Notes: generated by a model not told the origin, from the letters alone. Positions 1 to 38,322 are shown, counted from the stretch's first letter. The stretch: DNA of 53,766 bases from a virus (IMGVR_UViG_3300018080_000225:1-53766), one strand, 5' to 3'. Numbers and translations: made by a program.

Positions 1-3000
1 ACCTAAATCAGTTTTTGTTTCATACTTCTTATTCCACCAAAACCGTTTTAATGGAGTAATCCATTTTGAGGGCTTTAGAATTTCATCATAATACATTAAC
101 CATGGACTGACCGCTTCTGGTGCTGAAATATTTTGAAATAAAGGTGTAGGCTCATAATTCATTTCTTCTTCAAACTTCTTGAGCTTTTCTACCAACTCAG
201 GTGGCCGTGGATCAATTACATCTTCTGGCTGATTCACAGGGCGTAAATTGCCTGTCAACCAAGATAATTCACTAATACTCTGTTCAAGATCAGCGATTAC
301 CGCACGAGGATGTGCAGCCTGCCCTTGATAAGTAAAATGCTCACTCATATACTTATGGAAATTTTCGCGAGATGCCTTAACTTCTCCTTGCATCAAGGCT
401 ACGTTATATTGTTTTTGTAAAGTAGCATATTGATTTTGTGCATTTTGTAACTGTGTCTGTTGTTGCGATATTTGTGCTTGTACATCTTCCGGTGTACGAA
501 GGTTATATGCTAATTGTAACTGACCCCCCCGTGCTTTCCAATAAGCCTGTTGCATCTCAGGGGTATTGTTCAACGTGTGGAGTACTTGCCCTAATTGAGT
601 AACATTCAATGGGCCATAAGGGCCATATAACACATTACTAGCCACTTCATCATAATGATCTTGTCGTTGTGATCGGAATTGGCTTATAGGCGCAGATGTA
701 CGACTCAAAGAAAATTGAGCCTTTTTCCACTTATCACGTAAGGTCATTTCACGTTCGGCCATACGTTGATAGTTATCCTGAAGAATATCATATGCGACTA
801 CAGGATCACCACCGAAATGTCTTAACCACTCTTCCCATTCTGCCCATCGTGATGCATTATCTCGACTAACTACATATTCACCTTCTTGAAGTATGGCTGG
901 TACTTCTCCACCTGTTTGCATGTGTTTAACCCAACCACCATCATGAAACACTTTAGCGGGCGTACCTGCTGCTCGTTGTTGTTCCATTAATAATTTGTTC
1001 TGACGTGCATTTTCCTTAGCTAAAGCTAATTCCGGGCGTCCTGACTCAATATATTCTTTCTGTTCTCGCATCACAGTAAGAATATCAGTTAACAAACGTA
1101 AAGATTCTTGTGCTGCTTTATCATCGGCTACTTGACTGCTTGAGAGAGATCGCTCAAGATTTTGACCTAATGCTAATGTTTCTTCTACCACCCGTGGGAA
1201 CTCAGATTCCAATAGAGCAAGTCGCTCAGCTGAATCTTCACCTGTAGCCAAATAAGTTGCTGCTAACTTATCAATTTGCTTTTCAAGCCCAAAAACTTCT
1301 TGAAAAATCGGAGATGTAGTATCACGATCCGATATCAAGGTTGCTAACGTACGCATCTGACCAAGCATCTGAGGTAATTGCGTTTTATCTACAAAAGTTG
1401 TAAATAAAGCTTGATATGCAGCTGTTGTACCTTGAGTTACTTCTTGTCGTGTATTAATCTGTTCTTTCTCTATACGATCAAGTTCAGCAGCTAATCCCAT
1501 AGCTTCCCTGAGCTTATCACCTTGTTGACCTAATAGAGTTAACTCAACTGCGCGTTGTCCATTCTTTGCCCGTAATAATGATACTAAGCGTTCTTCACTC
1601 TTAATATTATCATCAAGTTGCTTTCCAACAAATTTACTTAATTCACCATAAGTCTTTACTTCCTGATTAAGAGCATTAAGCTGACTACGCAATGCAGGAA
1701 GTTCTGTTTCTTGTATCTCTTGTTGACGTGCGCGGTACGCCTGTGCAAATTGGCGTAGACGTGCCTGGCGTTCAAGATCAATGCGTACAGGTTGGAAGTC
1801 TCCAAGCTCTGTTACAGCAGTTCGACGTGCATCAGTTATTTGCTTCATGTATTCATCAAATAACTTAGTGGCTTGTTTCAAATCATCTGCTGTTGTGGCA
1901 GTTGTTACCTGCTGAATGGATTGAGAGAATAATTGAGCTGCACTACGCATTTCAATGTCAAAGCGATCAAAAGGTGTAGCTAATGGGCTTGACTTTGCCT
2001 CTTCAATACGCTGCACTTGGTACTTACGCTCTAAATCCGCTAGATATTTTTCCGTGTCTCTGCCTGCTTTTTCAAGATCAGCAATACGCTTCTTCAAAGC
2101 ATCACGTTGATCCTCAAGCGTCTGCTTATTGATTTCCATAAGCTCTTTTGCTTCAGCACGCTTTTCGTCTAACTGACTTTGAATAAGAATCTTTTCGCGT
2201 TCTTGGAATTCAGACAATTCGGAAATACGCTCGCGATGGTACTTCTGCACGTCTTGAATTAAGGTACCATTAATGATATTGAGATCTTTTACAACCTCTT
2301 CGGAATCCTTCTTTGCTCCTTCCATAACTTTATCAAGCGAACCAATTCCACGAATTACGGCATTCAAACCTAAGCTAATCGAACCTATTGCTGTAACTAA
2401 TCCACCGAAACGCCATACAAATTTCGGAATTGCAGATTCAACAGCAAATGCTTGCGCAACCAGGCGCGTAAATGTTACCCCCAATAAGCCATATGTTGCT
2501 GGTGCTAAGGCCGCACCACTGACATCACCTACAGATACCCCACCTATCATTTCTAAGCCTTTACTGATGGTAGCTAATACATCTTCAGCCATCATCATAT
2601 GACTCTGAAATACATTACGAACTTTGTTTGCTTCCTCAGTAATCATGAAGCCTGTTGTTTGTGTAACCAGACCAATAGACTTAAAATAACTTTCCGTTGC
2701 TTCTGCTGTTTTTGAAATATTAACTTCAACAGTATCAATATTCGAGATTAATCCAGCAAACCCTGTAGTACCTCGAATATCATGGATGTACTCAGACAAC
2801 TCGCCAAGATCACCGCTTGTCGCTTGTAATAATCGACGAATAACTCCTGATAGGCCGTACATTTGAATAGCCATTTGTCCAGACGTTACACCCCAATCCT
2901 CAAATAATGTCTTGAGTTGGGCAGATGGCTTCATTAACTTATTAATAACGTTGATAATGAAAGTGCTTGCACGATCAAAACGTAGACCACTGATCGTGAA

Positions 3001-5076
3001 CTGCTGAATCATTGTTAAGTATTCTTCAAATGATACACCAGCCTGATTAGCTAAAACTGCGGAACGTCCCATTGTATCTGCCATATCTTCTGCACGTACA
3101 CGACCCAATTCAATAGTTTTGAATAGTTGTGCCGCTATAAGACTGGCTTCGGACGCTGGTTTTTGGAACGCATTCAATGCTGACGATAACAGATTGATTG
3201 AATCAGTGATTGAAGAAGCTGTAGCATGAGAAAATTCTCCTGCTGTTTTCATGAAATCAACTGCACGTTGCCCTTGTGCAATCTGATTTGATGTAATTTG
3301 ATATAAGCCTTCTACAACATCTGTTTGTAATACATTATATTCATCCGATACTTCTTTGATTGCATCTCGCCAATCATTGTAAGTCATCGGCATTTCTTGA
3401 GAAATCGTTTGGACTTCACCAATTGCTCGGGATAAGTCTAATGTCGTGCTAACATTTGATCTTACTGCATTTGTAAAATTATAAAAGGCAGCAGTCAATG
3501 CACGAGCAAACACTAATTGACCAAAACGCTGCCACTTACGAGTAGTATTATCCACAGCCATACTTGCACGTTCACTAGCTGCTTCCATTTGATTAAAGAC
3601 ATTTACCATGTCTTTATTTGACTCAGTTACTTGAAGAGTACCTGCGCGGTACTTTTGCCATTCCCCTTCAAGATTATCGACATTAATCCCTGCTTTATGC
3701 ACACTACGTGCAAGATTCTCAAAAGAATCACGTAAAATTTGTTGTTGTCGTGGTTGTAGCTTAGACAAAGCTCTACCGCTCCGAAGAATACGTACAAATG
3801 CCGCTTCAAGTCTATCGGCTGTTTGACGTAATTCAGGTGCTAAAGCTGCTCTACCTGTGGCCTTTTCCATAGCTTCATCGAACTTCAACATTGTGCTCGT
3901 TAATTTATCCATCGGATTTAACGGGCCTTCTGCTTCCTTCCGAATAACTGCTAATGTACCTGACAACCCTTCTAAGCTATGGTCGCTCTTTGCTGTAGCC
4001 TCGGATAATTGATCGATCTGCTCATAAAGCACACGTTGCTGCTGAATAGGTAATGCACTAATTAATTCTTGATAAGACCCACGTAAAGCATTTGTTACTT
4101 GTGTTTGTCTTGTTTGAATACGGGAGGCTTCATTAGTTACATCATTTTCTTTTTGTTGCTTACTTAATACTGTATCAATACCCTTAATACGGGTTTGCAT
4201 TTCCTTTTGTTCGGCTGCATTTAGCTCTGCACTTGTTTCTACTCCCATCTGTTTTGCAATAAATAAAGTCTGTAAGGCTGCTCTGAATCTCTGTGCTGCT
4301 TCAATTTGTGCTTCATTGAAAGGCGCGTCAACTGTTGCCGCTGGCTCTGTTGGTAATGGTACTTGAGCCGCACGTTCAGCTTGAATAGCTGCTGCTACAG
4401 CTTCAGCATTCTTTAAGCGCTGTTCATAAGCTTTTTGTTCTACTACATTTTGCTCTTTTCTAACTTCTGTTGATTGATCAATTGCTAAAATTAAGCCGAG
4501 TAATTCTTTTTTATGTTCACCTACTGCTTTTGCTTCTTCTGTTGTAAAAGGTATTGCCGCCTCAATTGGTTTCTTAGGATCACGAGTTGTCACTGATGTC
4601 TGTGCGATTTCTTGATGCGCTTTTTTAACATCTTCTACAAAATTCCGTCGGAATGTGTCAACTTTCTTATTTACAGCATCAAGTATCTTACCTGTTTTCT
4701 GTGCCAAACGATCATCTAGCTTATCAAGCTCTTTTGGAATAATTGGAATTTTCTGAACTTGTTTGCCCGCAGTTTCAAGTTTCTTAATTTCCCCCTGCAT
4801 ATTACCAAGAACACGTTGCGCGTTCTGAAAACGCTTATTTAGTGCATCTGATGGTCCTTCAACTGCAATCGCAGTTGCTTTGGCTGATTGCACCATAATC
4901 TTGGCATAAGCAGAACATACATTCCCCAACCCCGTCATTACTTTAGCCAATTGACGCTGTTGTGCTGTAGCAACAGTAGATGCCGCATTGAAGGCATTCA
5001 TTTCTTGCGTCAATTGACGTAACGGTTGTTCATAACCGCTGGTATCTAGGGATACACTTATACTTTCATCTGCCAT
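1..5076 (-). CDS. Tail tape measure protein, 3' end beyond window (at least 1692 aa)
   Basis: Not in the ORF track because no stop falls in the window. ATG at 5076 (MADESISVSLDTSG) overlaps the upstream TAA (TAATG) and the frame is open at position 1 (...KKYETKTDLG); spot-checked, not every codon. TP901-like core near 2700-3450 (ALNAFQKPASEASLIAAQLFKTIELGRVRAEDMADTMG). C-terminal HDGG...QTGGEVPAILQEGEYVV motif near 880-950. Confidence 0.9.
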   Translation of the reverse strand, partial: MADESISVSLDTSGYEQPLRQLTQEMNAFNAASTVATAQQRQLAKVMTGLGNVCSAYAKIMVQSAKATAIAVEGPSDALNKRFQNAQRVLGNMQGEIKKLETAGKQVQKIPIIPKELDKLDDRLAQKTGKILDAVNKKVDTFRRNFVEDVKKAHQEIAQTSVTTRDPKKPIEAAIPFTTEEAKAVGEHKKELLGLILAIDQSTEVRKEQNVVEQKAYEQRLKNAEAVAAAIQAERAAQVPLPTEPAATVDAPFNEAQIEAAQRFRAALQTLFIAKQMGVETSAELNAAEQKEMQTRIKGIDTVLSKQQKENDVTNEASRIQTRQTQVTNALRGSYQELISALPIQQQRVLYEQIDQLSEATAKSDHSLEGLSGTLAVIRKEAEGPLNPMDKLTSTMLKFDEAMEKATGRAALAPELRQTADRLEAAFVRILRSGRALSKLQPRQQQILRDSFENLARSVHKAGINVDNLEGEWQKYRAGTLQVTESNKDMVNVFNQMEAASERASMAVDNTTRKWQRFGQLVFARALTAAFYNFTNAVRSNVSTTLDLSRAIGEVQTISQEMPMTYNDWRDAIKEVSDEYNVLQTDVVEGLYQITSNQIAQGQRAVDFMKTAGEFSHATASSITDSINLLSSALNAFQKPASEASLIAAQLFKTIELGRVRAEDMADTMGRSAVLANQAGVSFEEYLTMIQQFTISGLRFDRASTFIINVINKLMKPSAQLKTLFEDWGVTSGQMAIQMYGLSGVIRRLLQATSGDLGELSEYIHDIRGTTGFAGLISNIDTVEVNISKTAEATESYFKSIGLVTQTTGFMITEEANKVRNVFQSHMMMAEDVLATISKGLEMIGGVSVGDVSGAALAPATYGLLGVTFTRLVAQAFAVESAIPKFVWRFGGLVTAIGSISLGLNAVIRGIGSLDKVMEGAKKDSEEVVKDLNIINGTLIQDVQKYHRERISELSEFQEREKILIQSQLDEKRAEAKELMEINKQTLEDQRDALKKRIADLEKAGRDTEKYLADLERKYQVQRIEEAKSSPLATPFDRFDIEMRSAAQLFSQSIQQVTTATTADDLKQATKLFDEYMKQITDARRTAVTELGDFQPVRIDLERQARLRQFAQAYRARQQEIQETELPALRSQLNALNQEVKTYGELSKFVGKQLDDNIKSEERLVSLLRAKNGQRAVELTLLGQQGDKLREAMGLAAELDRIEKEQINTRQEVTQGTTAAYQALFTTFVDKTQLPQMLGQMRTLATLISDRDTTSPIFQEVFGLEKQIDKLAATYLATGEDSAERLALLESEFPRVVEETLALGQNLERSLSSSQVADDKAAQESLRLLTDILTVMREQKEYIESGRPELALAKENARQNKLLMEQQRAAGTPAKVFHDGGWVKHMQTGGEVPAILQEGEYVVSRDNASRWAEWEEWLRHFGGDPVVAYDILQDNYQRMAEREMTLRDKWKKAQFSLSRTSAPISQFRSQRQDHYDEVASNVLYGPYGPLNVTQLGQVLHTLNNTPEMQQAYWKARGGQLQLAYNLRTPEDVQAQISQQQTQLQNAQNQYATLQKQYNVALMQGEVKASRENFHKYMSEHFTYQGQAAHPRAVIADLEQSISELSWLTGNLRPVNQPEDVIDPRPPELVEKLKKFEEEMNYEPTPLFQNISAPEAVSPWLMYYDEILKPSKWITPLKRFWWNKKYETKTDLG

Positions 5077-7907: not shown

Positions 7908-8365
7908 GCCTCGATCATCCTTTCATGCTCAATTATCCCTGTCAAGTCAACTTCCATATAGCCAACTTTCAAGGGTATCTTTGTTTCTACGTTCCCTCTT
8001 TCAATGGTCCGAATGTTCATGTCATGTAAGCAAAAGTCTGGTGAAGTTATACCTGTTACAAGGATATTTTCTGATGCTGCTGCGGCAAAAAGTCCTAATA
8101 AATCTGTAATCTCATAAATGTTTTCGCTACGTTGAATATTGATCGCACATCCTACACGAATCTGTAATCTTACAGTTGTAGTTTGTCCATCTGCCTCTTC
8201 GGAATAAAACGGTCCATAGACTTTCAATTCTGCCCATTTAGAATGTGAATTTGGTCGTTTCTGATCTTCACCTAAGAACATGTGCATTCCTTCACTTTCT
8301 GCTACAGCAGCAAAGTGCTTTGTGACTGCACGTCGAATTTCTGTTGTCCAATGTGGTCTAATCAT
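7904..8365 (-). CDS. Putative tail terminator/completion protein
   Basis: 153 aa, directly upstream of the tail tube genes, ATGA-coupled; assigned by synteny. Confidence 0.5.
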   Translation of the reverse strand: MIRPHWTTEIRRAVTKHFAAVAESEGMHMFLGEDQKRPNSHSKWAELKVYGPFYSEEADGQTTTVRLQIRVGCAINIQRSENIYEITDLLGLFAAAASENILVTGITSPDFCLHDMNIRTIERGNVETKIPLKVGYMEVDLTGIIEHERMIEA

Positions 8366-8760
8366 TTTGTTGGTAATCCTACAAGGATAAGTTCCCAGGC
8401 TTCATAGAGATCATTAACCTCTTTCACCTCATACCGTTCATTCCGACTTGTTATGATGGTATCTGCTCCTGATGGATGAACACCAAGAGGCAAATCTGAT
8501 TTTTGTATTAGCCCGACATGACTACCTTTATCGTAATTTGAATCATACGGGTAACTGCCTGCTCGAAATGCCTTAACATACGTTCTTGCAATCTCTACAG
8601 GAAACAGAACAATCTGAGCTAAGTCAAACTCATGTGATCCTGATCCTACTTGACCTGTTTCAGGATTAGCCTTAGAAGTAGTTATTGTCACATACTTCAC
8701 AGGCTGACCCCAATCGCGCTTCAGCGTGTATAGCAGGTCAATCAGAGGGACGTTCGTCAT
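8362..8760 (-). CDS. Putative head-closure (stopper) protein
   Basis: 132 aa; NPETG and D.I....RYEV..V pattern typical of stoppers; synteny. Confidence 0.5.
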   Translation of the reverse strand: MTNVPLIDLLYTLKRDWGQPVKYVTITTSKANPETGQVGSGSHEFDLAQIVLFPVEIARTYVKAFRAGSYPYDSNYDKGSHVGLIQKSDLPLGVHPSGADTIITSRNERYEVKEVNDLYEAWELILVGLPTK

Positions 8761-8968
8761 GACATCTCTCCATCATAGATGTTGCGGCCATTATTACTTG
8801 AGTTGTTTGTTCAATGAGCCTCATTAGGGTGTTACGTTGAAAGTCTTGCAACTCCGCAATAACAGCACCTAACGATTGCTCACGTTTGAAATCCCGCCAT
8901 ACAAAGAAGCCAAAAATAGCAACAAACGGACCGGCTTCTTTCAAAACTGCTAAGAAAGCTGCTTCCAT
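8738..8968 (-). CDS. Small single-TM protein, holin-like (BhlA/UviB-type)
   Basis: GPFVAIFGFFVW hydrophobic segment followed by RDFKRE and a coiled coil; AGGAGG RBS. Confidence 0.45.
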   Translation of the reverse strand: MEAAFLAVLKEAGPFVAIFGFFVWRDFKREQSLGAVIAELQDFQRNTLMRLIEQTTQVIMAATSMMERCHDERPSD

Positions 8969-8991
8969 TTGTTACCTCCTTTCTCCTTTAT

Positions 8992-9396
8992 TTACGGTAG
9001 TTGGATGACCGCGATGTTAATCTCGGTTGCCAACAATGCACCACCGAGCGTATAATCAAGACCGACTTCTCCATCGGACTCGAAATTGCCCGTAAATGGT
9101 CCAATCAAATTGGCTTCACCGGGACCAATAACGATCGTTGGATCTTGTACCGGTAGTCCATCCGGCGTCTCCGGGACCACGGTGGTCGCATCCATCGTGA
9201 TCGTAAGATCGTCGGTGTCATCTGTGTTTTGAACCACAATGAGACACTTCCCACGAACATTGGCAAACTTATTGCCATTAACCGCATCGGGGTTTTCCCA
9301 TAACAATGGTCCAGGCGTAAAGACGCCACCTGGTTCGGTATAAATACCCTTGAACGAGGCAAGTTGTACGCCATTTGTAAAATCTGTACGTGCCAT
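8992..9396 (-). CDS. Virion structural protein (decoration-like), paralog A
   Basis: Downstream of the major capsid gene; shares SF.G..T..GG...P, F.N......V.N and GPF..NF with two neighbours. Confidence 0.55.
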   Translation of the reverse strand: MARTDFTNGVQLASFKGIYTEPGGVFTPGPLLWENPDAVNGNKFANVRGKCLIVVQNTDDTDDLTITMDATTVVPETPDGLPVQDPTIVIGPGEANLIGPFTGNFESDGEVGLDYTLGGALLATEINIAVIQLP

Positions 9397-9414
9397 TTTG
9401 GCTCTCCTTTATAG

Positions 9415-9825
9415 TTACTCTGGTAATATTACTGCGGCTACATCAATATCTGTTCGTGCCGCTGTGCCACCAAAAGTTAACGAACACTGATCTTTAAGAT
9501 CAAAATTTTCTGAAAACGGTCCAAAGATTCCCCACATATTTGGTGGTACAACAAAATGTTGTTGTCCATCTGTTGTCACATGCCAATAAGGTGGGTCTAT
9601 AACTTTTGCTTGTGATCCGTAAAAAGTATAACTAAGAGTTCCTGTTAATGAACGATTTCTGACAACTAAAATAAGCCTATTGGGGACATTCACAAATGTA
9701 TCACGATCAGGTATTTCAACTGGGTGTCTTGACAAGTCCAGCGCACCAGGAGTAAAGATACCACCTGGTTCCGTAAAGATACCATCAAAGGAGCAATACT
9801 GATGAGGTATCACAATTAAAGCCAT
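9415..9825 (-). CDS. Virion structural protein (decoration-like), paralog B
   Basis: Paralog of 8992-9396 (SFDGIFTEPGGIFTPG; GPFSENF). Confidence 0.5.
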   Translation of the reverse strand: MALIVIPHQYCSFDGIFTEPGGIFTPGALDLSRHPVEIPDRDTFVNVPNRLILVVRNRSLTGTLSYTFYGSQAKVIDPPYWHVTTDGQQHFVVPPNMWGIFGPFSENFDLKDQCSLTFGGTAARTDIDVAAVILPE

Positions 9826-9829
9826 CTAG

Positions 9830-10252
9830 TTATCCTCCTTCCGCTGGTACACATACTACAGCCAACTTTAATGAGCCTGTAGGAGGTGGAAACCCTGCTG
9901 GTGAAATGATGAATCGTGCTCGGTCATCAAAATTGAAGTAATTTGAAAACGGTCCAACGATATTCCACCAACTATTTGGGGGTACTACAGTGAGAGAATC
10001 TGATACACCCATAGGAAATGGAATATTATAGATCGTTGCGTTAACTTCATTAATTATTGACACTGGCTCACTGGTTTCATTGTTTGCTACAATTACTGTT
10101 CGTCCTGTTTTATTCACAAAGTCAAAATATAAAGGTATGTTAAAGTTTGTTATCTCTGTCCAAACTAAAGAGTTTGGCACTAATACTCCACCCGCCAGAG
10201 TATAGACTCCAGCGAATGAAGCCTTTTGAACTTCTAGTGGAGTATAGGCCAT
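9830..10252 (-). CDS. Virion structural protein (decoration-like), paralog C
   Basis: Paralog (SFAGVYTLAGGVLVP; GPFSNYF). Confidence 0.5.
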   Translation of the reverse strand: MAYTPLEVQKASFAGVYTLAGGVLVPNSLVWTEITNFNIPLYFDFVNKTGRTVIVANNETSEPVSIINEVNATIYNIPFPMGVSDSLTVVPPNSWWNIVGPFSNYFNFDDRARFIISPAGFPPPTGSLKLAVVCVPAEGG

Positions 10253-10258
10253 AACTCA

Positions 10259-11209
10259 TTATCTCCCTGCAACCATCGGCTTGACGACAGTGGTGTCCGT
10301 GCCGGATGAGGTCTTGGTGAACTTGATGCTCTTATCCGCATCAAGCATATCCTTAGGAAATGGCCCCAAGATCCAATCACCGGCTGCTACAGGTATCTGA
10401 TAGTTTGCAAACCAAATCTTCTTTGTAACCCGACTCGATTGATTCCATACAAAACTCAACTTGATCGCATCGCCCGTTACACTTACATACAAAAATGTAT
10501 TGGTCGTTGCATCGGTGATCTCATATGTCGTAGTCTCATATATCGTTGTCGTTCCACTATCCAACGTCATGCCTACTGGTGTGACTTCATCTGCCGCAAT
10601 AGTCGCAGTCATTGAAATGGTAGCTACAATTGGATCTGACAAGAGTACGGCACTTACGTCATCTTCCACATTGACGTAATAAGTGCCTGCATCAGCAGCA
10701 TCCAACGGGTCGATCGTCAATACAGAAGTTGTTGCTCCTGCAATTGCGGTTGCTGTCCCATCTTTCATCCACTGATATGTGTAAGGTGTAATACCATCCG
10801 TTGCTACTACACTAAAGGTAAAAGATGATCCTGCCTGGTAATCGTGTGTTCCACTTGCAGGAGTCGTAGCCAGCGTCATAATCTGAGCCTCAATAGGATC
10901 AGATGTAATTACCGCTGAAACATCATCTGTTACTTCTGCATAATATGTACCAGCATCATCGGTATCAAGAGGATCAATCGTTAAAATGGACGTGGTGGCA
11001 CCGCTTATATAGTTTGCGGTGCCATCCTTCGCCCACTTATAGGTGTACGGGGCCGTTCCACCAGATGCAGTTGCATCAAAGGTGAACGACCCACCATCAG
11101 CATACGCGTAGGTGCCGCTTGTAGGGTTTGTAGCGACCGCAAGAGCCTGAGCAAAAGCTGGTCCTGCGACCATCAAACCTAACATTAATACTACAAACCA
11201 TTTCTTCAC
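10259..11209 (-). CDS. Signal-peptide protein with two tandem Ig-like domains
   Basis: GTG start with GGAGG RBS; MKKWFVVLMLGLMVAGPAFA signal; two repeats of about 88 aa with PYTY.W.KDG and D..DAGTYY; C-terminal part has ILGPF like the downstream paralogs. Confidence 0.75.
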   Translation of the reverse strand: MKKWFVVLMLGLMVAGPAFAQALAVATNPTSGTYAYADGGSFTFDATASGGTAPYTYKWAKDGTANYISGATTSILTIDPLDTDDAGTYYAEVTDDVSAVITSDPIEAQIMTLATTPASGTHDYQAGSSFTFSVVATDGITPYTYQWMKDGTATAIAGATTSVLTIDPLDAADAGTYYVNVEDDVSAVLLSDPIVATISMTATIAADEVTPVGMTLDSGTTTIYETTTYEITDATTNTFLYVSVTGDAIKLSFVWNQSSRVTKKIWFANYQIPVAAGDWILGPFPKDMLDADKSIKFTKTSSGTDTTVVKPMVAGR

Positions 11210-11221
11210 GATGCACCTCCT

Positions 11222-12577
11222 TTACGCGATCAAAACGCCGCCCATGTCTTGATTGAGGGTCTTCACACCACAAAGCGTGTCAAGCGTGATGACGTACTTC
11301 ATAATGCTCATGTTATAGCCGATGGTGACACGCAGCGCAATGTTGCCTGCGGCTGCGAGAGCCGAATTCACGCCAGAACCCTGATCGGCGGGACGCATCG
11401 GACGATTGACCAAGGTAAGCGCATCCTTAATCATTCCCAGATTGTAATTGGCCGGAGGACACGGACCAAGGACCGAACCGGTTACAACGGCGGCATCCAA
11501 CGGGCGGTTCAACGTGATCGCCGTGATGTTTGCGCCATCATCCGTAAGGCCGGTAATCATATACATATTACCTGCGAGGTACACACCTTGGCCAATCTTG
11601 AGGGCTGTCAGGCCCGTCACACCAGCAATTGCGATATCGCCGGAGTAATTGACCGGTAACGTCGAGGCATTACCTGTCAAATAGGACGTGATCGTGGTAA
11701 CAACGGCACCTGCTTCGGTTGCGCTCTGCAACCCCGGCCAAATCTCGATGTCGGTCGTCGGGGCCGCACCGGTAACACCTGTCACCAATTGCGGATGCGC
11801 ATCGCCTGCGATGGTCACAAACGATCCGACGGAGATGTCATCTGTACCACCCGTGGACAAGGCCAAACTGGTCGCGCCCTTGGATTGTGCAGCGGTAACG
11901 GTGAACTCGGTGGCATCCGTCAAGATACCGGGAGCTGCCACTTCCGAAGCCTGATTTGCGACGTACACATCGAAACTACGAGCGCGACCGATCCAACCAT
12001 TCAAGACAGGATCATTGGAGCGCGACGCGGTGTCGTTGAATACATCGATGCCAAGCATGTCATTCTCGGTCGACGGCCCAATGATGAGCTTGCGTTCGTC
12101 GCGAGGAATGAAGTTGCGCGTGAACTTCTCATTCAAATCACGCAGAGCCGCATCACCGACGGGCGTACCAATCGCCCCGGCGGTCGTGCCGAGGAAATTG
12201 TATGCTTCACCCATCAGGATCAAATCGATGCCTTCCGCGATTGCGCGGGCTGCCGGAACCATGAAACGTTCGCGGAGTTCCGGGAATGCCGACTGAATAT
12301 CACGATCATCCAGCTCAAAAGACACGTGTAGGTGCTGATTGAGCTTGACCGTATCGCCTTCGACGATTGCATCCTGAATGACAATCGGGCTACCCTTTTG
12401 TTTCCGCTTGGACTCGAACGTACCGGTCCGATTAATATTGACTACATCCCCGCCACGGGCGAAGAAGCCGTCATAGTCGCGATTCACAAGATTCGCGATC
12501 ACAAGATTTGCATTCAAAATGCGCAGGCTCTCAAAGGCCCACCATTCTGGAATCAATGCATTAATGTCGTTCGCCAT
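11222..12577 (-). CDS. Major capsid protein (P22 coat-like, HK97 fold) with inserted domains
   Basis: LIPEWWA..L..L..NLV...LVNRDY, GDVVNI and C-terminal LDTLCGVKTL patterns; follows the scaffold gene. Confidence 0.85.
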   Translation of the reverse strand: MANDINALIPEWWAFESLRILNANLVIANLVNRDYDGFFARGGDVVNINRTGTFESKRKQKGSPIVIQDAIVEGDTVKLNQHLHVSFELDDRDIQSAFPELRERFMVPAARAIAEGIDLILMGEAYNFLGTTAGAIGTPVGDAALRDLNEKFTRNFIPRDERKLIIGPSTENDMLGIDVFNDTASRSNDPVLNGWIGRARSFDVYVANQASEVAAPGILTDATEFTVTAAQSKGATSLALSTGGTDDISVGSFVTIAGDAHPQLVTGVTGAAPTTDIEIWPGLQSATEAGAVVTTITSYLTGNASTLPVNYSGDIAIAGVTGLTALKIGQGVYLAGNMYMITGLTDDGANITAITLNRPLDAAVVTGSVLGPCPPANYNLGMIKDALTLVNRPMRPADQGSGVNSALAAAGNIALRVTIGYNMSIMKYVITLDTLCGVKTLNQDMGGVLIA

Positions 12578-32964: not shown

Positions 32965-32993
32965 ATTATATCAAATTTAGAGGCTTATGTCAA
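32965..32993 (-). promoter_or_regulatory. Consensus sigma70 promoter
   Basis: TTGACA-17-TATAAT with TGn. Confidence 0.8.
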
Positions 32994-34269
32994 GTATTAC
33001 TTTGTCACCAAAATCTGGGCCATATGATTTATACTTCACTGGTATATTCAAGCCTTGTTCAAGAGCAAAGCACATATCATTTTCATCAAAGATATCATGA
33101 ATATAGATCGGTTCGACATTATTCATAAGATCTTTTGTTAATTGTGCTTGAGTTTCAAGGTCTGGTTCTTCACCAGGAAGTAAAATACCGTATTGCTCAC
33201 CGGTATCTTTTTGCTTATAACCTCCACAAATTTGGAGAGCTTGATGCTGGAAAATATCAAGGTGTGTAACCGCAAGATAGTGAAATGGTGCTTCATAATT
33301 GGCGGCCATAACAGCATATTTCCATAAGACAAGATCAGGCCATCCGAACCGGAAGTGCTGTTGCCATTTATTACTACAATTCACTTCATGTGGGTGAAAG
33401 ATATTTTCTGGTTTTGTTTCAGTAACCAAGGGTCCAGCCCCATGTCTTGTCATATATGATCTTACTACCCCCATAATCTCTACATTACCATAGAGGCTAG
33501 GTATACTTTCATTGATCACATCGGCTACATTTGTAGGGATAATTGTAGACCAAGTTGTATATGGATGGAAGCCATACCATTCATCTAAAAGCACTCCTTG
33601 AGCACCCTCAAAAATAACGGAGCCATCGATTGTAGGTTTTGCAATTTGTAGAGCCGATGCAATTTTAGAATAATTTTTCGCAAGATTTGCTGGCTCTTTT
33701 GAGTCAGAGAATCTTTGATAAGGTGTAACGTCAACACCCATGGAGCGACATTCTTGGAGCCTATGTTCTTGGATTCGGTGTAATTTGTCTTCACAATAGT
33801 TAAGTTCCCAAGCACGAATTACGCTTCCTGAACTATTTACAAGATCAGAACCAAGCTCACCAATGCCTTTACCACAAGATCCATGGCGATTTTTGCCACG
33901 ATGCATCTCTTTAGCTCGATTAGCCCATACATGAAAAGGTGTGATAATAGGAGTATCAGGATCAATCCAAATTTTATCTAAAGGTTTGCTTACACCTTTT
34001 TCTTGGAGTATGGTTGCCTCTTCTATGAGACTGATTGGGTTGAATAATACATGCCTGGAAAGATATGTTTTAACATTTGGCCGTTGTGATCCTGAACCAA
34101 ATTGTGAAAAGCAATGTTTGAATTCCCCATTTTTAACATTATGCCCGCATTGTGCCCCACCATTATAACGGATGACCCAATTTGTTTCACGTTCATGCAC
34201 CAAAAAATCGGTCATGGTGCCTTTACCAGAATCACCAAAACCAAGGTCAATTACTACGATCCCATCCAT
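32977..34269 (-). CDS. Adenylosuccinate synthetase-like protein (divergent PurA family)
   Basis: Start MDGIVVID at 34269 (AAGGAG). GFGDSGKG, RYNGGAQCGHNV, HGSCGKGIG, FEGAQGVLLD, HPYTT, YMTRHGAGP, RFGWPD and THLD motifs. Confidence 0.88.
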   Translation of the reverse strand: MDGIVVIDLGFGDSGKGTMTDFLVHERETNWVIRYNGGAQCGHNVKNGEFKHCFSQFGSGSQRPNVKTYLSRHVLFNPISLIEEATILQEKGVSKPLDKIWIDPDTPIITPFHVWANRAKEMHRGKNRHGSCGKGIGELGSDLVNSSGSVIRAWELNYCEDKLHRIQEHRLQECRSMGVDVTPYQRFSDSKEPANLAKNYSKIASALQIAKPTIDGSVIFEGAQGVLLDEWYGFHPYTTWSTIIPTNVADVINESIPSLYGNVEIMGVVRSYMTRHGAGPLVTETKPENIFHPHEVNCSNKWQQHFRFGWPDLVLWKYAVMAANYEAPFHYLAVTHLDIFQHQALQICGGYKQKDTGEQYGILLPGEEPDLETQAQLTKDLMNNVEPIYIHDIFDENDMCFALEQGLNIPVKYKSYGPDFGDKVILDISL

Positions 34270-34364
34270 TACATGTCTCCTTTTAGAGTGTGGGTGGGCC
34301 AGAGGAAGGGAAGAACCCTGACCCACCCTAGGCGCTCGATGAGGGTCGAGCAAACCTTGTAAAA

Positions 34365-35387
34365 TTACAACCGTTCACGCCCTTCTGAGCTTCCGGTTTC
34401 AATGTCGGTACTCACTGATCCTGCTTCTACTGGAACCAATGAACCTGTTGCACTTGCTGCGTTTTCTATGCCCGCAGCACCTTTGGCCCGTAACAATTCA
34501 ACCATTTCGGATTCATCGACACCAATCAAACGACTCACAGCCATAACCATTGTCGTAATGATCGCGTCGGTTTCGGGAACCTCGAAAACGTGTTCAGGGT
34601 TGCCACCAGCTTGCATCAAGAGATCTTGCCATTGCTTCGTGATATCATGATTTGAGCCATGGTTTGTGTGTAATGGACGGATGATAAACACATGATAACG
34701 CTCAAGTGTTTGCTTCACGGCGTCCAACATAGGAACTTCGGCTTGTAACACATCTCCGAAAACGCTCTCGGCAATGTCGGGCGACGTGCCATATTTCGTG
34801 TAATCTCGACGATCAAAGTAGGGTTCTTCATCACAGATCAAGAACGCAAAACCTTTTTCATCATTGGTGTCGAAACATTCGAGTTTCGTGTGATTTGCCA
34901 AGGCGTAGAAGAACAGGTGATAAGACTCCCCCATATTCCCTCCACCACGATAGGGAATGATCATTTCATTCAAGGCTTCAACGAGTTTCTCTGCCTCAAT
35001 CTCAAATTGGCTCATTTGAAATGCTGCGTTTTTCATTACTGTTTCATCGTCAAATGCAATGAACATCACGTTTGGATGATCGGAAACTTCTTTTTCTACG
35101 ATCAAATCGATGAGTTTTGGAAGTTCCGTTTGAATATGACCAGGAACCTGATGCATTGATCCTGTAGCATCGATCCCTATTACAATAGGCGTCGCATCAT
35201 CGAATCCATCGACATAACACGATTCACGCATCCCATCTTTCAACTTCTTGGGATCAAGAATCTCAGCAATGTCATCGAATCTTCCGGTTGATCTTGCCGT
35301 TGAAGCACGGCTAAATAGCTTGTCATCTGCTGCCAAGCTATCAACAGTACTACAATACTTGGTACTTGAATATGAACCTCCGCCCAT
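34365..35387 (-). CDS. vWA domain protein (MGGG-start family)
   Basis: MIDAS motif DATGSM; QMSQFE, GGGN.GESY and ICDE motifs. Confidence 0.85.
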   Translation of the reverse strand: MGGGSYSSTKYCSTVDSLAADDKLFSRASTARSTGRFDDIAEILDPKKLKDGMRESCYVDGFDDATPIVIGIDATGSMHQVPGHIQTELPKLIDLIVEKEVSDHPNVMFIAFDDETVMKNAAFQMSQFEIEAEKLVEALNEMIIPYRGGGNMGESYHLFFYALANHTKLECFDTNDEKGFAFLICDEEPYFDRRDYTKYGTSPDIAESVFGDVLQAEVPMLDAVKQTLERYHVFIIRPLHTNHGSNHDITKQWQDLLMQAGGNPEHVFEVPETDAIITTMVMAVSRLIGVDESEMVELLRAKGAAGIENAASATGSLVPVEAGSVSTDIETGSSEGRERL

Positions 35388-35503
35388 TAGTCACCCTCTT
35401 CCGTTCGACAATGGGCACAAGTACACGGCTTATCATTGTCTGGTTTTTCAACCTGCTCAGCTGCCTTAGCTGCATCGGTTGTATTTCCTGCTGGTGCTCC
35501 CAT
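35387..35503 (-). CDS. 38-aa peptide with CxCxxC, coupled to the vWA gene (not in ORF track)
   Basis: AAGGAG RBS; MGAPAGNTTDAAKAAEQVEKPDNDKPCTCAHCRTEEGD*; TAATG overlap. Confidence 0.55.
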   Translation of the reverse strand: MGAPAGNTTDAAKAAEQVEKPDNDKPCTCAHCRTEEGD

Positions 35504-35559
35504 ATTGATCTCCTTATGTTATGGATACTTACTTTATGTAAGTTTCCTGATTACCTTAA

Positions 35560-36296
35560 CTAATTTGGACAGAAGGAATGCTGGTAAACAGACAAACCAA
35601 AATACACCACAAATAACCAAGAGACAGGCAACCCAAACAGGCTCAACAGACCATCAATTGCTCCATCAATGGCAAAAGTAACCATTGTAATACCAGCTCC
35701 GATCAAATACCAAGTAAACATAATATTTTCCCTATATTCCAACCGATTGTAACACTTACAATCAAAAGAATCATAACAGTATAAAGGTGTTTCGGCCCTG
35801 TTGCTTTGTAATAGTAAATGCAGATCAATGCACCAGTGATGTATAATAGACACCACCATGCAACAAGCCAAGGAATTACGAATAGCAAAGTCATACTATC
35901 TCCTTTTGTAACTACAGATCAAAAGACCTATAGCACAAGGCAAACCAACAGGCCAAAGAACGGCAGCTACCCATGCAATTATTCCATAAAGAAATACCCC
36001 ATCACCACTATCTATTGGGCCTTCAAGCAAACGAACAACTAACATGCTAAATAAGAATGTAAAAACGGCTCCTGTTACATAGAAGTAAAAGTCCATTACG
36101 TATTTCCTTTGAAAATAAGATGACCAATAGCCAAGAAAACAAAACCAATAGGGCCAAGAAATGCAGCAACCCCTATTGCCATTGTTAACATAACTAAATC
36201 ATCTTTACCAGGATTATCCGAATACTCGTTAACTAGGTATACACCATAAGCTATTGTTCCAATTATACATATAATGTATGTTAATACAGTCATCAT
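35560..36296 (-). CDS. Four small membrane proteins (35560-35721, 35703-35894, 35896-36096, 36096-36296)
   Basis: Each 53-66 aa with about two hydrophobic segments; tightly packed or overlapping. Confidence 0.65.
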
Positions 36297-37369
36297 GTTG
36301 ACATCTCCAATGGTTCAAATTGCGGCTTACCGAATACTTGTTTTTGGACCTCACGAAATGTAATCGAAGCACCCATTGCAGTGAATGGGCGGAATCTACG
36401 TTTTGGTTGAATACAATGATGTAAGAACTCAACAATTGGCTCTTCAAGCTCAAGACAAAAGTAATCGCCTCGTGCAAGAGACAAAAGACATTTTGCCGCT
36501 GCATAAATATCACAAGAAGGTAAGCAAATATGATTTTTCGTTGCTTCTGGTGCAAGAAAATCTTTATTACCTATATAGAGCATTGGCTTATCTGCATTTG
36601 TCCAATCGATTACTTGACCAAGATGCTTTTCGGCATGGATAATCACATGATGTGGGGTTACACAATTATGTGATATTTTTTGACTGTGAGCGATGGACAA
36701 TGACTCGAATATACGATTACCAATGAAACAGATTTGACGGGAATTAAGGCCATTGGGATGTGCTTTTGTAATTTGTTCAAGGTTGTACCAACCTGACTCA
36801 TAACCAGGTGGTTGAACAAATACGATCATTTTCTTCCCATTCTTATGTCGAATTGTTTCCAAGATTTTTGGTAATAACAATTGCATGTTAGCACCTTCCA
36901 TCTGAGGGAATGGCTTGAGAGCTTCGGTAAAGATTTTCAAGGTTTGAATTTCACGTTCGAGAAGATCATTGTCCGCTTTGGAATGAGGAATCTTAACTAT
37001 GCCAGAAACGTAGCAGTCACGTTTCTTTTCATAGATCTTAGTTGAGAATACACCACAAGTTTGACCTGTATGGATTTGCTCAAGATCATGATACTCATAG
37101 CGACGTGTCTCGAAAGATTGTATTTTGACAGGTTCATCTGTTTGCCAAGTACCCTTAGCAAATTTCCTTTTGGCAATATCCCAAAGATCATTCAATTTTG
37201 CTGAAGCTTGATGAGCAAGTTCGGGATTATCTGGATTGCGATCAGGATGTATCTGTTTTTGAATACGATGATACCAAGGACGTGCTTCATCTTCTGTATT
37301 TCCAAGGAATACGCTTTCTGGCTTATTACATTCCAGAAGAAGTTTGGCAGTAAGCTCAAGCTCAGTCAT
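36293..37369 (-). CDS. J-domain fused to an atypical protein kinase-like domain
   Basis: HPD motif (QIHPDRNPD); IVKIP...LLERE; catalytic loop SHNCVTPHHV without Asp; IDW in place of DFG; LAPE; DIYAAA. Confidence 0.8.
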   Translation of the reverse strand: MTELELTAKLLLECNKPESVFLGNTEDEARPWYHRIQKQIHPDRNPDNPELAHQASAKLNDLWDIAKRKFAKGTWQTDEPVKIQSFETRRYEYHDLEQIHTGQTCGVFSTKIYEKKRDCYVSGIVKIPHSKADNDLLEREIQTLKIFTEALKPFPQMEGANMQLLLPKILETIRHKNGKKMIVFVQPPGYESGWYNLEQITKAHPNGLNSRQICFIGNRIFESLSIAHSQKISHNCVTPHHVIIHAEKHLGQVIDWTNADKPMLYIGNKDFLAPEATKNHICLPSCDIYAAAKCLLSLARGDYFCLELEEPIVEFLHHCIQPKRRFRPFTAMGASITFREVQKQVFGKPQFEPLEMST

Positions 37370-37781: not shown

Positions 37782-37872
37782 TTGCCTATGGTTTGCTAAG
37801 CAAACCACAACGGGAATCGAACCCGTGACCTCGTCATTATCAGTGAAGTAACCCGATCAACCGCATAGGCAA
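37782..37872 (-). ncRNA. Truncated copy of the YrlA-like RNA, lacking the D-arm
   Basis: 37787-37873 is identical to 38222-38308 over 87 bp. Confidence 0.65.
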
Positions 37873-37875
37873 TGA

Positions 37876-37985: not shown

Positions 37986-37986
37986 G

Positions 37987-38068
37987 TAGGCGAGGAGGGA
38001 CTTGAACCCTCAAGCCGCAAGAGCAGCGGATTTTAAGTCCGCCGTGTATTCCATTCCACCACTCGCCC
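37987..38068 (-). tRNA. tRNA-Leu(TAA)
   Basis: Acceptor GGGCGAG/CTCGCCT, anticodon arm GCGGA-CTTAAAA-TCCGC, long variable arm, GAGGG-TTCAAGT-CCCTC T-arm; CCA not encoded. Confidence 0.95.
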
Positions 38069-38171: not shown

Positions 38172-38306
38172 TGCCTATGATTAAATAACCAGGAAATTTT
38201 CGCGCTCTACCCACTGAGCTATATGGTTTGCTAAGCAAACCACAACGGGAATCGAACCCGTGACCTCGTCATTATCAGTGAAGTAACCCGATCAACCGCA
38301 TAGGCA
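38172..38306 (-). ncRNA. YrlA-like Y RNA (circularly permuted tRNA mimic)
   Basis: 5' TGCCTATG pairs with 3' CATAGGCA; GGGTTACTTC; then TCA-CTGATAA-TGA loop, GAGGTC, T-arm ACGGG-TTCGATT-CCCGT, closed acceptor-like hairpin TGTGGTTTGC-TTA-GCAAACCATA, and D-arm TAGCTC-AGTGGGTA-GAGC. Confidence 0.8.
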
Positions 38307-38322
38307 ATTCTTTATTCAACTG

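Follow-up and report, generated by a model that had tools for sequence, protein, structure and literature searches.

Several described systems stand close to the locus analyzed here. Adenylosuccinate synthetase (PurA), the enzyme of housekeeping AMP synthesis, has phage-borne relatives, PurZ and PurZ0 (phiVC8, S-2L), which form an archaeal-like short lineage with altered substrate contacts and have DatZ and MazZ as partners. Proteins of the vWA fold are coupled to a kinase-fold protein in the small mobile operons of the TerY-P triad (the vWA protein TerY, a Ser/Thr kinase and a PP2C phosphatase) and to AAA+ ATPases in the MoxR-vWA pairs (CbbQO, NorQD), which are enzyme activators. The joining of a J-domain to a kinase is represented by GAK/auxilin and the DNAJB1-PRKACA chimera 4wb7, which are eukaryotic and carry active kinases. 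In this study, we analyzed a cassette of IMGVR_UViG_3300018080_000225, a linear virus record from IMG/VR (53,766 bases); this whole stretch is referred to as the window, and its completeness is estimated at about 62%. The cassette encodes a J-domain/kinase-fold protein, a vWA protein and a PurA-like protein of family PF00709, which together represent a conserved mobile module common to phages, Actinomycetota chromosomes and metagenome-assembled genomes (MAGs) of the Candidate Phyla Radiation (CPR). This module is so far uncharacterised, widespread and conserved far beyond chance. We know of no described bacterial or phage system that combines a PurA-type GTP-dependent ligase having a rebuilt third-substrate pocket with a J-domain pseudokinase. 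Full-text literature searches returned no description of the trio, with supplements and subscription-only papers outside their scope, so that an earlier description is possible. Public annotations of the genes read 'PurA-like adenylosuccinate synthetase' or '2-aminooxy adenylosuccinate synthetase', 'serine/threonine kinase' and 'hypothetical protein'.

The distribution of the three proteins was investigated in phage records, metagenomes and bacterial genomes. Since the cassette DNA gave no blastn match to phage records, the informative searches were those at the protein level. Among 50,697 phage records searched by tblastn, the PurA-like protein matched 236 (201 from Mycobacterium, 10 from Rhizobium, 6 from Vibrio and 19 others), the vWA protein 218 (200, 10, 6 and 2, respectively) and the kinase 202 (201 from Mycobacterium and one from Mycolicibacterium), and the host distributions of the three were near-identical. 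Essentially all cluster C (Bixzunavirus) mycobacteriophages carry the module, with about 200 sequenced genomes matched, and it is also present in Rhizobium and Vibrio phages and in many uncultured phages. The gene order in Mycobacterium phage I3 is gp270 (kinase), gp271 (vWA-like), gp272 (112 aa) and gp273 (PurA-like). The vWA gene also adjoins the PurA-like gene in two phages without a detectable kinase, Vibrio phage Va1 and Rhizobium phage RHph_TM2_3B. The vWA gene lay immediately upstream of the PurA-like gene in all eight phage and IMG/VR loci, six of which also had the J-domain kinase; for the six IMG/VR loci, which had been found via the PurA-like protein, the corresponding counts were 6/6 and 5/6. 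All three genes were present in each of four metagenome relatives found via the vWA protein, where the contig allowed.

According to the initial annotation, a similar trio occurs in some bacteria. In a bacterial scan with the vWA alignment, covering one genome per prokaryote species, more than 600 pattern matches were obtained and 456 stretches were confirmed, mostly from Actinomycetota; the module is thus present in at least 456 species-representative bacterial stretches, and the bacterial counts below refer to the best 80 of them, picked by vWA similarity alone. These 80 loci belonged mostly to Actinomycetota (Nocardia, Amycolatopsis, Micromonospora, Saccharothrix, Actinomadura, Frankia and others) and included seven CPR MAGs and one Planctomycetota MAG. 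The PurA paralog was directly downstream of the vWA gene in 79 of the 80, the exception ending at a contig edge, and the kinase was detected by tblastn in 55, which makes the trio a real and strongly conserved unit. Adjacency of the vWA and PurA-like genes over phage, metagenome and bacterial loci reached 91 of the 92 examined, and the kinase was found in 66 of 93 loci with a hidden Markov model (HMM) of its family, the 27 loci lacking it being mainly from Nocardia; the homologs therefore do co-occur in the neighbourhood analysis that had been proposed as a check. The universal core is the vWA gene followed by the PurA paralog, and the usual partner is an upstream J-domain pseudokinase. The genes form a compact island of three to four genes whose flanks vary. 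The seven CPR MAG contigs (Saccharibacteria/Kaiserbacteria, L011-L017) carried the full module plus an NrtR-like gene, and their vWA proteins were 51-60% identical to those of IMG/VR phage loci. Either these are genuine genes of CPR bacteria or the contigs may come from phages and have been assigned to the MAGs by binning.

The PurA-like protein of the window (34269-32977, minus strand; 430 aa from the ATG at 34269) matched PF00709 with an E-value of 3.4e-60 (204.4 bits against a gathering score of 27) and is about 28% identical to E. coli PurA. It missed the NCBIfam cut-offs for PurA, scoring 159 bits against 402 for NF002223 and 139 against 395.6 for TIGR00184. A residue table of 86 PurA-like family members in E. 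coli PurA numbering showed two sets of positions. The first set was kept: Asp13, Lys16, His41 and Gln224 in 84 members each, Thr239 in 86 and Asp333, the residue that specifies guanine, in 83. Asp13, Lys16, His41 and Gln224 are all present in the window protein, and the P-loop GDxGKG is retained, as GDSGKG in the window. The enzyme thus shares fold and catalytic residues with PurA and keeps the residues needed to transfer a phosphoryl group from GTP to the 6-oxo group of a purine. The second set was changed: N38 to Gln in 83 members, T129 to Cys in 76, S240 to Trp in 83, V273 to His in 84 and K331 to His in 76, together with the aspartate loop, in which T300 is replaced by Tyr, Trp or Phe (83), T301 by Gln (84) and R305 by Phe or Trp (80), and R303 is deleted in all 86, so that TTGRRR becomes [YW]-Q-G-x-[FW]-R. 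The window protein has Trp, Gln, a deletion and Phe at T300, T301, R303 and R305, and Gln, Cys and Ser at N38, T129 and R143, the last of which is not conserved across the family. We take N38, T129 and R143 (from the partner subunit) to be IMP 5'-phosphate contacts of E. coli PurA, and T300, T301 and R305 to be its aspartate-loop residues. R303 of PurA contacts the IMP 2'-OH and aspartate (PMC8342488). The replaced positions are themselves conserved within the family, which points to a change of substrate and not to decay. The pocket is rebuilt both where the third substrate binds and around the ribose-phosphate part of the nucleotide.

Exactly two PF00709 genes were found in each of five actinomycete genomes, one being the canonical purA (596-613 bits) and the other the paralog (185-231 bits). 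This second copy, the score of 159 bits against 402 and the loss of the aspartate loop bear out the initial view that housekeeping AMP synthesis is not the role of the enzyme, and identity with plain PurA was rejected on the aspartate loop, the IMP 5'-phosphate contacts and the NCBIfam cut-off. Phages often carry nucleotide-metabolism genes, and the strong PF00709 match with its catalytic residues would suit an ordinary auxiliary metabolic gene that boosts AMP synthesis in infection, having the kinase and vWA genes as unrelated neighbours. We nevertheless consider this explanation highly improbable, because R303 is deleted in every member and T301 is Gln in 84 of 86, the score falls below the PurA equivalog cut-off, the vWA gene precedes the PurA-like gene in 91 of 92 loci, and the bacterial copy is a duplicate beside canonical purA in five of five genomes.

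The public labels point to another identity, namely that the PurA-like protein is PurZ, a 2-aminoadenylosuccinate synthetase serving a Z-genome. Its PHROG match was phrog_1211, '2-aminooxy adenylosuccinate synthetase' (1.2e-73), a PHROG shared with PurZ, and RefSeq gives the same name to the I3 homologue. The remaining comparisons contradict these labels and leave the identity barely credible. The NCBIfam PurZ model was not reached (45 bits against a cut-off of 300), and in a PDB search bacterial PurA was the best match (E about 1e-33), with the phiVC8 PurZ structures appearing only at about 2e-4. Asp13, kept in 84 of 86 family members, is the essential catalytic residue and is Ser in 147 of 147 phage PurZ/PurZ0 sequences (PMC12884076). 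The family has the length of bacterial PurA and vWA and J-kinase partners, in contrast to the lineage and partners of PurZ, and no DatZ gene lies beside the PurA-like gene, unlike in phiVC8. In a quick maximum-likelihood tree with an arbitrary root, 30 module PurA-like proteins formed one clade (Shimodaira-Hasegawa-like approximate likelihood ratio test, SH-aLRT, 99), apart from six housekeeping PurA proteins and phiVC8 PurZ. The window protein grouped with three metagenome sequences in this quick tree (SH-aLRT 95), and all actinomycete copies came together in a single clade (SH-aLRT 99) that lies within the viral and CPR sequences. A 2026 Nucleic Acids Research survey of viral PF00709 proteins (PMC12884076) roots its PurZ tree with the non-PurZ homologues. 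Judged from sequence, the PurA-like enzyme is neither housekeeping PurA nor PurZ.

A related proposal retains the chemistry of PurZ in a broader sense: a (deoxy)purine monophosphate would be coupled to a small amine (glycine or another) to give an N6-substituted dAMP analogue, which would enter phage DNA as a nucleotide-level hypermodification and serve restriction evasion. PurZ provides the precedent, being a relative of PurA from phages in which both the nucleotide and the product have changed (PMC8342488, PMC12884076), the ribose/phosphate contacts and the aspartate loop are remodelled, and the PurA-like gene lies among replication genes of the window (ligase, polymerase, helicase). However, the module also occurs in at least 456 bacterial stretches, where it adjoins an NrtR-type regulator and is accompanied by a normal purA; a role in modifying virion DNA fits poorly with this, and the tight linkage to the vWA protein and J-pseudokinase would go unexplained. 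No DatZ, MazZ/DUF550 or DpoZ-like partner was found among the 27 window proteins scanned against PHROGs, on a contig that is about 62% complete. We regard DNA hypermodification as decidedly unlikely.

The J-domain/kinase-fold protein (37369-36293, minus strand; 358 aa) gave two Pfam matches that stayed under the gathering score, Pkinase with E 1.8e-5 and DnaJ with E 0.0029; for DnaJ (PF00226) the single-sequence score was 18.1 against a cut-off of 27.8. It matched phrog_3043, 'kinase', at 1.9e-13. The J-domain occupies approximately residues 1-75, with HPD at 41-43. A search of the PDB with an N-terminal profile (78 positions, 21 homologues) gave 78 sequences at E<=1, the best at 2.4e-7, and almost all of the 60 matches listed were J-domain proteins. 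The AlphaFold2 (AF2) model, with a predicted local distance difference test (pLDDT) score of 84.5, led by Foldseek to protein kinases, and the DnaJ-PKA chimera 4wb7 aligned with it over the whole length (424 columns). A profile search of 1.84 billion representatives returned 1,476 relatives with full-length matches at E<=1e-30, and an alignment of 152 sequences was built from the window protein, two further homologues and 149 representatives. The HRD position reads H234-N-C236 in the window, Cys replacing the catalytic Asp; in the 152 relatives this column holds Ala (137), Ser (6), Gly (6), Cys (2) or Asn (1) and never Asp. Other kinase residues were kept, namely the beta3 Lys in 141, the alphaC Glu in 152 and the DFG Asp in 116, and all three are present in the window protein (K126, E140 and D255). 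The HPD motif was likewise retained (His in 145, Pro in 119 and Asp in 148), and H234, H241 and H249 were nearly invariant. With a J-domain profile match and a catalytic Asp absent from 152 of 152 sequences, the protein therefore joins a J-domain to a predicted pseudokinase or non-canonical (atypical) kinase, an arrangement like that of GAK/auxilin and 4wb7, whose kinases differ in being active.

Small mobile operons that couple a vWA protein with a protein of the kinase fold are also the arrangement of the TerY-P triad. The module differs in that its kinase is fused to a J-domain and has no catalytic Asp, and in that its third gene is a PurA paralog. Membership in the TerY-P triad was rejected on the missing catalytic Asp, on the absence of any PP2C phosphatase among the conserved module neighbours and on the lack of a PADLOC match for the vWA protein.

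The vWA protein itself (35387-34365, minus strand; 340 aa) had no Pfam match and was assigned through its AF2 model and Foldseek, in addition to a match to phrog_2971 (2.8e-27). The model (pLDDT 87.3, predicted template modelling score 0.87) found its matches among vWA/integrin I domains (280 PDB chains at E<=0.001), and the Foldseek probability was 1.0 to the vWF A1, integrin I and SpaC vWA domains. A set of the metal ion-dependent adhesion site (MIDAS) type is present (D73-A-T75-G-S77, T167 and D186), in which the first Ser of DxSxS is Thr; the invariance of D73, S77, T167 and D186 in 38 vWA sequences is consistent with a MIDAS site. The most conserved motif of the family is the N-terminus, MGxGxW[DS]xxxY, and among 93 sources Gly2 was found in 93, Gly4 in 87, Trp6 in 85 and Tyr11 in 90, with a start codon in all 93. 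Complex prediction of the PurA-like and vWA proteins with family alignments gave a score of 0.00 and a mark of 0.32, which weighs neither way. By analogy, the MoxR-vWA pairs offer a parallel, as there too a vWA/MIDAS adaptor stands beside an enzyme that it possibly serves and an ATP-driven chaperone device is involved; the difference is that the chaperone link of the module would be a J-domain recruiting Hsp70/DnaK. No MoxR AAA+ gene was noticed in the inspected loci and no recurrent AAA+ cluster was seen among the neighbour ORF clusters, a result obtained without a dedicated search for MoxR AAA+ proteins.

The neighbourhood of the bacterial loci contributed a regulator to the picture. In locus L043 it combines a NUDIX domain (PF00293, 4.7e-21) with an NrtR winged-helix domain (PF21906, 1.2e-11), which places it with a family of regulators that respond to ADP-ribose, and NUDIX/NrtR-like tblastn matches were obtained in 75 of the 80 bacterial loci. 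The gene lies just upstream of the kinase gene, overlapping it in Micromonospora, or just downstream of the PurA-like gene. The regulator scored below the NCBIfam NtrR equivalog cut-off (138.6 against 400). Table 1 of Rodionov 2008 (PMC2330246) lists nrtX-nrtY, an NrtR-regulated operon without assigned function, in Streptomyces, Frankia, Kineococcus, Proteus and Hahella; this operon may overlap with the module. Among the viral and metagenomic sources, NADAR genes occurred within 6 kb of the module in 3 of 14, and the Rhizobium phage has an NMNAT/NUDIX gene and a phosphoribosyltransferase (PRTase)-like gene near its vWA/PurA-like pair. On the phage-like metagenome contig L094, an NrtR-type regulator precedes the module and a full CTP synthase gene (8705-10354; CTP_synth_N, 8.6e-102) directly follows it.

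We suggest, with slightly better than even confidence, that the module specifies a chaperone-linked and probably ADP-ribose-regulated enzyme that makes a purine adduct other than adenylosuccinate, likely in phage-host conflict. The PurA-like enzyme would use GTP to phosphorylate a 6-oxopurine-type carbonyl and would then couple an amine other than free L-aspartate, possibly to a nucleotide other than plain IMP, the product being a non-adenylosuccinate N6-substituted purine compound. The J-domain would recruit host DnaK, and the vWA protein may act as the adaptor of J-domain/DnaK towards the PurA-like enzyme, in parallel to the MoxR-vWA pairs with Hsp70 replacing the AAA+ ATPase. Expression in bacteria would respond to ADP-ribose or a related ligand via the NrtR-type regulator. 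This regulator, together with the NADAR and NAD-salvage neighbours in phages, suggests deployment when NAD+/ADP-ribose metabolism is perturbed, as it may be in phage-host conflict.

Two other accounts were considered. The first, very unlikely in our estimation, is a base-linked protein 'purinylation' in which the PurA-like enzyme, rather than producing a free nucleotide, would join C6 of a GTP-activated purine nucleotide to the alpha-amine of Gly2 of the vWA protein after Met removal. DnaK, brought in by the J-pseudokinase, would present or release the modified vWA protein, and in bacteria ADP-ribose would act as a switch via the NrtR-like regulator; this account would explain why the arginines that bind the aspartate carboxylate became aromatic residues, why MGxGxW of the vWA protein is the most conserved motif of its family and why the two genes are never apart. 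The second follows a TerY-P-like logic, in which the module would serve bacterial defence, or superinfection exclusion or counter-defence by phages, the vWA protein and kinase sensing a cue of infection and the PurA paralog acting as an effector that depletes or converts the purine pool or makes a signal. The compact island with varying flanks, the ADP-ribose-type regulator and the NADAR neighbours would fit such a system, the kinase weakly matches defence kinases such as PD-T4-6 and MkoA in PADLOC, and the pairing of vWA and kinase resembles that of TerY-P. This account, which we judge possible yet unlikely, is opposed by the lack of a PADLOC match for the vWA and PurA-like proteins, by the missing PP2C phosphatase and by a kinase without catalytic Asp; it overlaps the adduct-forming enzyme preferred here and differs mainly in the biological role assigned.

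Several points weigh against the proposal of a chaperone-linked enzyme making a purine adduct. Its chemistry is read from residue changes, and of the residue roles in E. coli PurA on which this reading draws, those of R303 and Asp13 are documented in PMC8342488 and PMC12884076. Because 27 of 93 loci lack the kinase, a DnaK-linked step cannot be essential to the core. PADLOC has no model that matches the vWA or PurA-like protein, which leaves a defence role without direct support. The link to NAD and ADP-ribose in phages consists of few neighbours (three NADAR and three NUDIX among 14 sources), and tblastn found no NUDIX, NADAR or Ro gene in the window, a contig about 62% complete. The quick status of the family tree counts on the same side.

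Study of the module could reveal a new purine-derived metabolite or protein modification and a new use of Hsp70 by phages and bacteria, and could connect ADP-ribose/NAD+ stress with the chemistry of purines. The widespread labels 'PurZ' and 'serine/threonine kinase' on module genes would be corrected. As M. smegmatis mc2155 supports growth of the phages, the system is open to experiment.

The window carries nearly all of its genes on the minus strand, including those for terminase, portal, major head protein, DNA polymerase, helicase, sigma factor and ATP-dependent ligase. The order of transcription in the cassette is the J-kinase, four small open reading frames (ORFs) with two transmembrane (TM) segments each, a 38-aa CxCxxC ORF, the vWA protein and the PurA-like protein, and all of these elements were located on the minus strand where the initial annotation had placed them. 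The small ORFs, all on that strand, are tm1 (36296-36096, 66 aa), tm2 (36096-35896, 66 aa), tm3 (35894-35703, 63 aa) and tm4 (35721-35560, 53 aa). Each has two hydrophobic segments by hydropathy; tm1, tm2 and tm3 are preceded by a Shine-Dalgarno (SD)-like motif, and tm4 starts at an internal ATG within a 103-aa TTG frame. The acidic 38-aa ORF (35503-35387, minus strand) contains CTCAHC, has a strong SD motif and shares one base between its stop and the vWA start. The start of the PurA-like gene is likely the ATG at 34269 (SD AAAGGAGA) and not the TTG at 34353. At the end of this gene, a sigma-70 consensus match of 12/12 (32965-32993, minus strand; TTGACA, a 17-nt spacer, TATAAT and an upstream TG) overlaps its stop, and suggests a separate transcription unit for the downstream genes.

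The earlier grouping of the whole cassette as one module did not hold for its small ORFs, as tblastn found no similar counterpart of tm1-tm4 or of the 38-aa peptide in 12 other phage and metagenome loci. They look like a local, lineage-specific insertion between the kinase and vWA genes. Mutual similarity among tm1-tm4 was weak, the best pair (tm1/tm2) having a z of 2.1 and a score reached by 9 of 300 shuffles, and their status as paralogs was not established. The close relatives L091 and L093 have acidic ORFs of 36-48 aa before the vWA gene, without detectable similarity to the 38-aa ORF. Locus L004 has a 38-aa ORF (8350-8466) that starts with MGAPA and follows the PurA-like gene; the window ORF at 35387-35503, before the vWA gene, likewise starts with MGAPA.

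The cassette had also been described as lying directly downstream of a Y RNA/tRNA array. The array is indeed upstream, but a 97-aa ORF (37655-37362) separates the two and the 'Y RNA' match is sub-threshold. This full-length Rfam match to YrlA, a Y RNA-like family, at 38174-38290 on the minus strand reached 35.9 bits, with a gathering score of 69 for the family, and had an E-value of 8.9e-6 when 1.5 kb was searched. An exact 87-nt direct repeat (37787-37873 and 38222-38308, 435 nt apart) has one copy inside the YrlA match, and its copies flank a tRNA-Leu(TAA) at 37986-38068. The phage thus probably encodes two RNAs of a Y-RNA-like/tRNA-like kind, as far as sequence features indicate. No TROVE/Ro protein gene was found in the window by tblastn, and a 380-aa protein upstream of the Y-like RNAs had no Pfam match and was not linked by BLASTP to Ro from Vibrio phage Va1; the idea that the vWA protein is a split vWA domain of Ro was therefore dropped. 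Vibrio phage Va1 encodes a Ro/TROVE protein (10354-11862; PF05731, 2.2e-17, with a weak vWA_Ro60 match) 2.3 kb downstream of its vWA/PurA-like pair, which is preceded at a distance of 1.1 kb by a NADAR gene (9.9e-49). In phages, the module may tend to be accompanied by Ro/Y-RNA elements. At the far end of the window, a 1692-aa ORF in the standard code (1-5076, minus strand) runs off the window start and probably encodes a very large structural protein.

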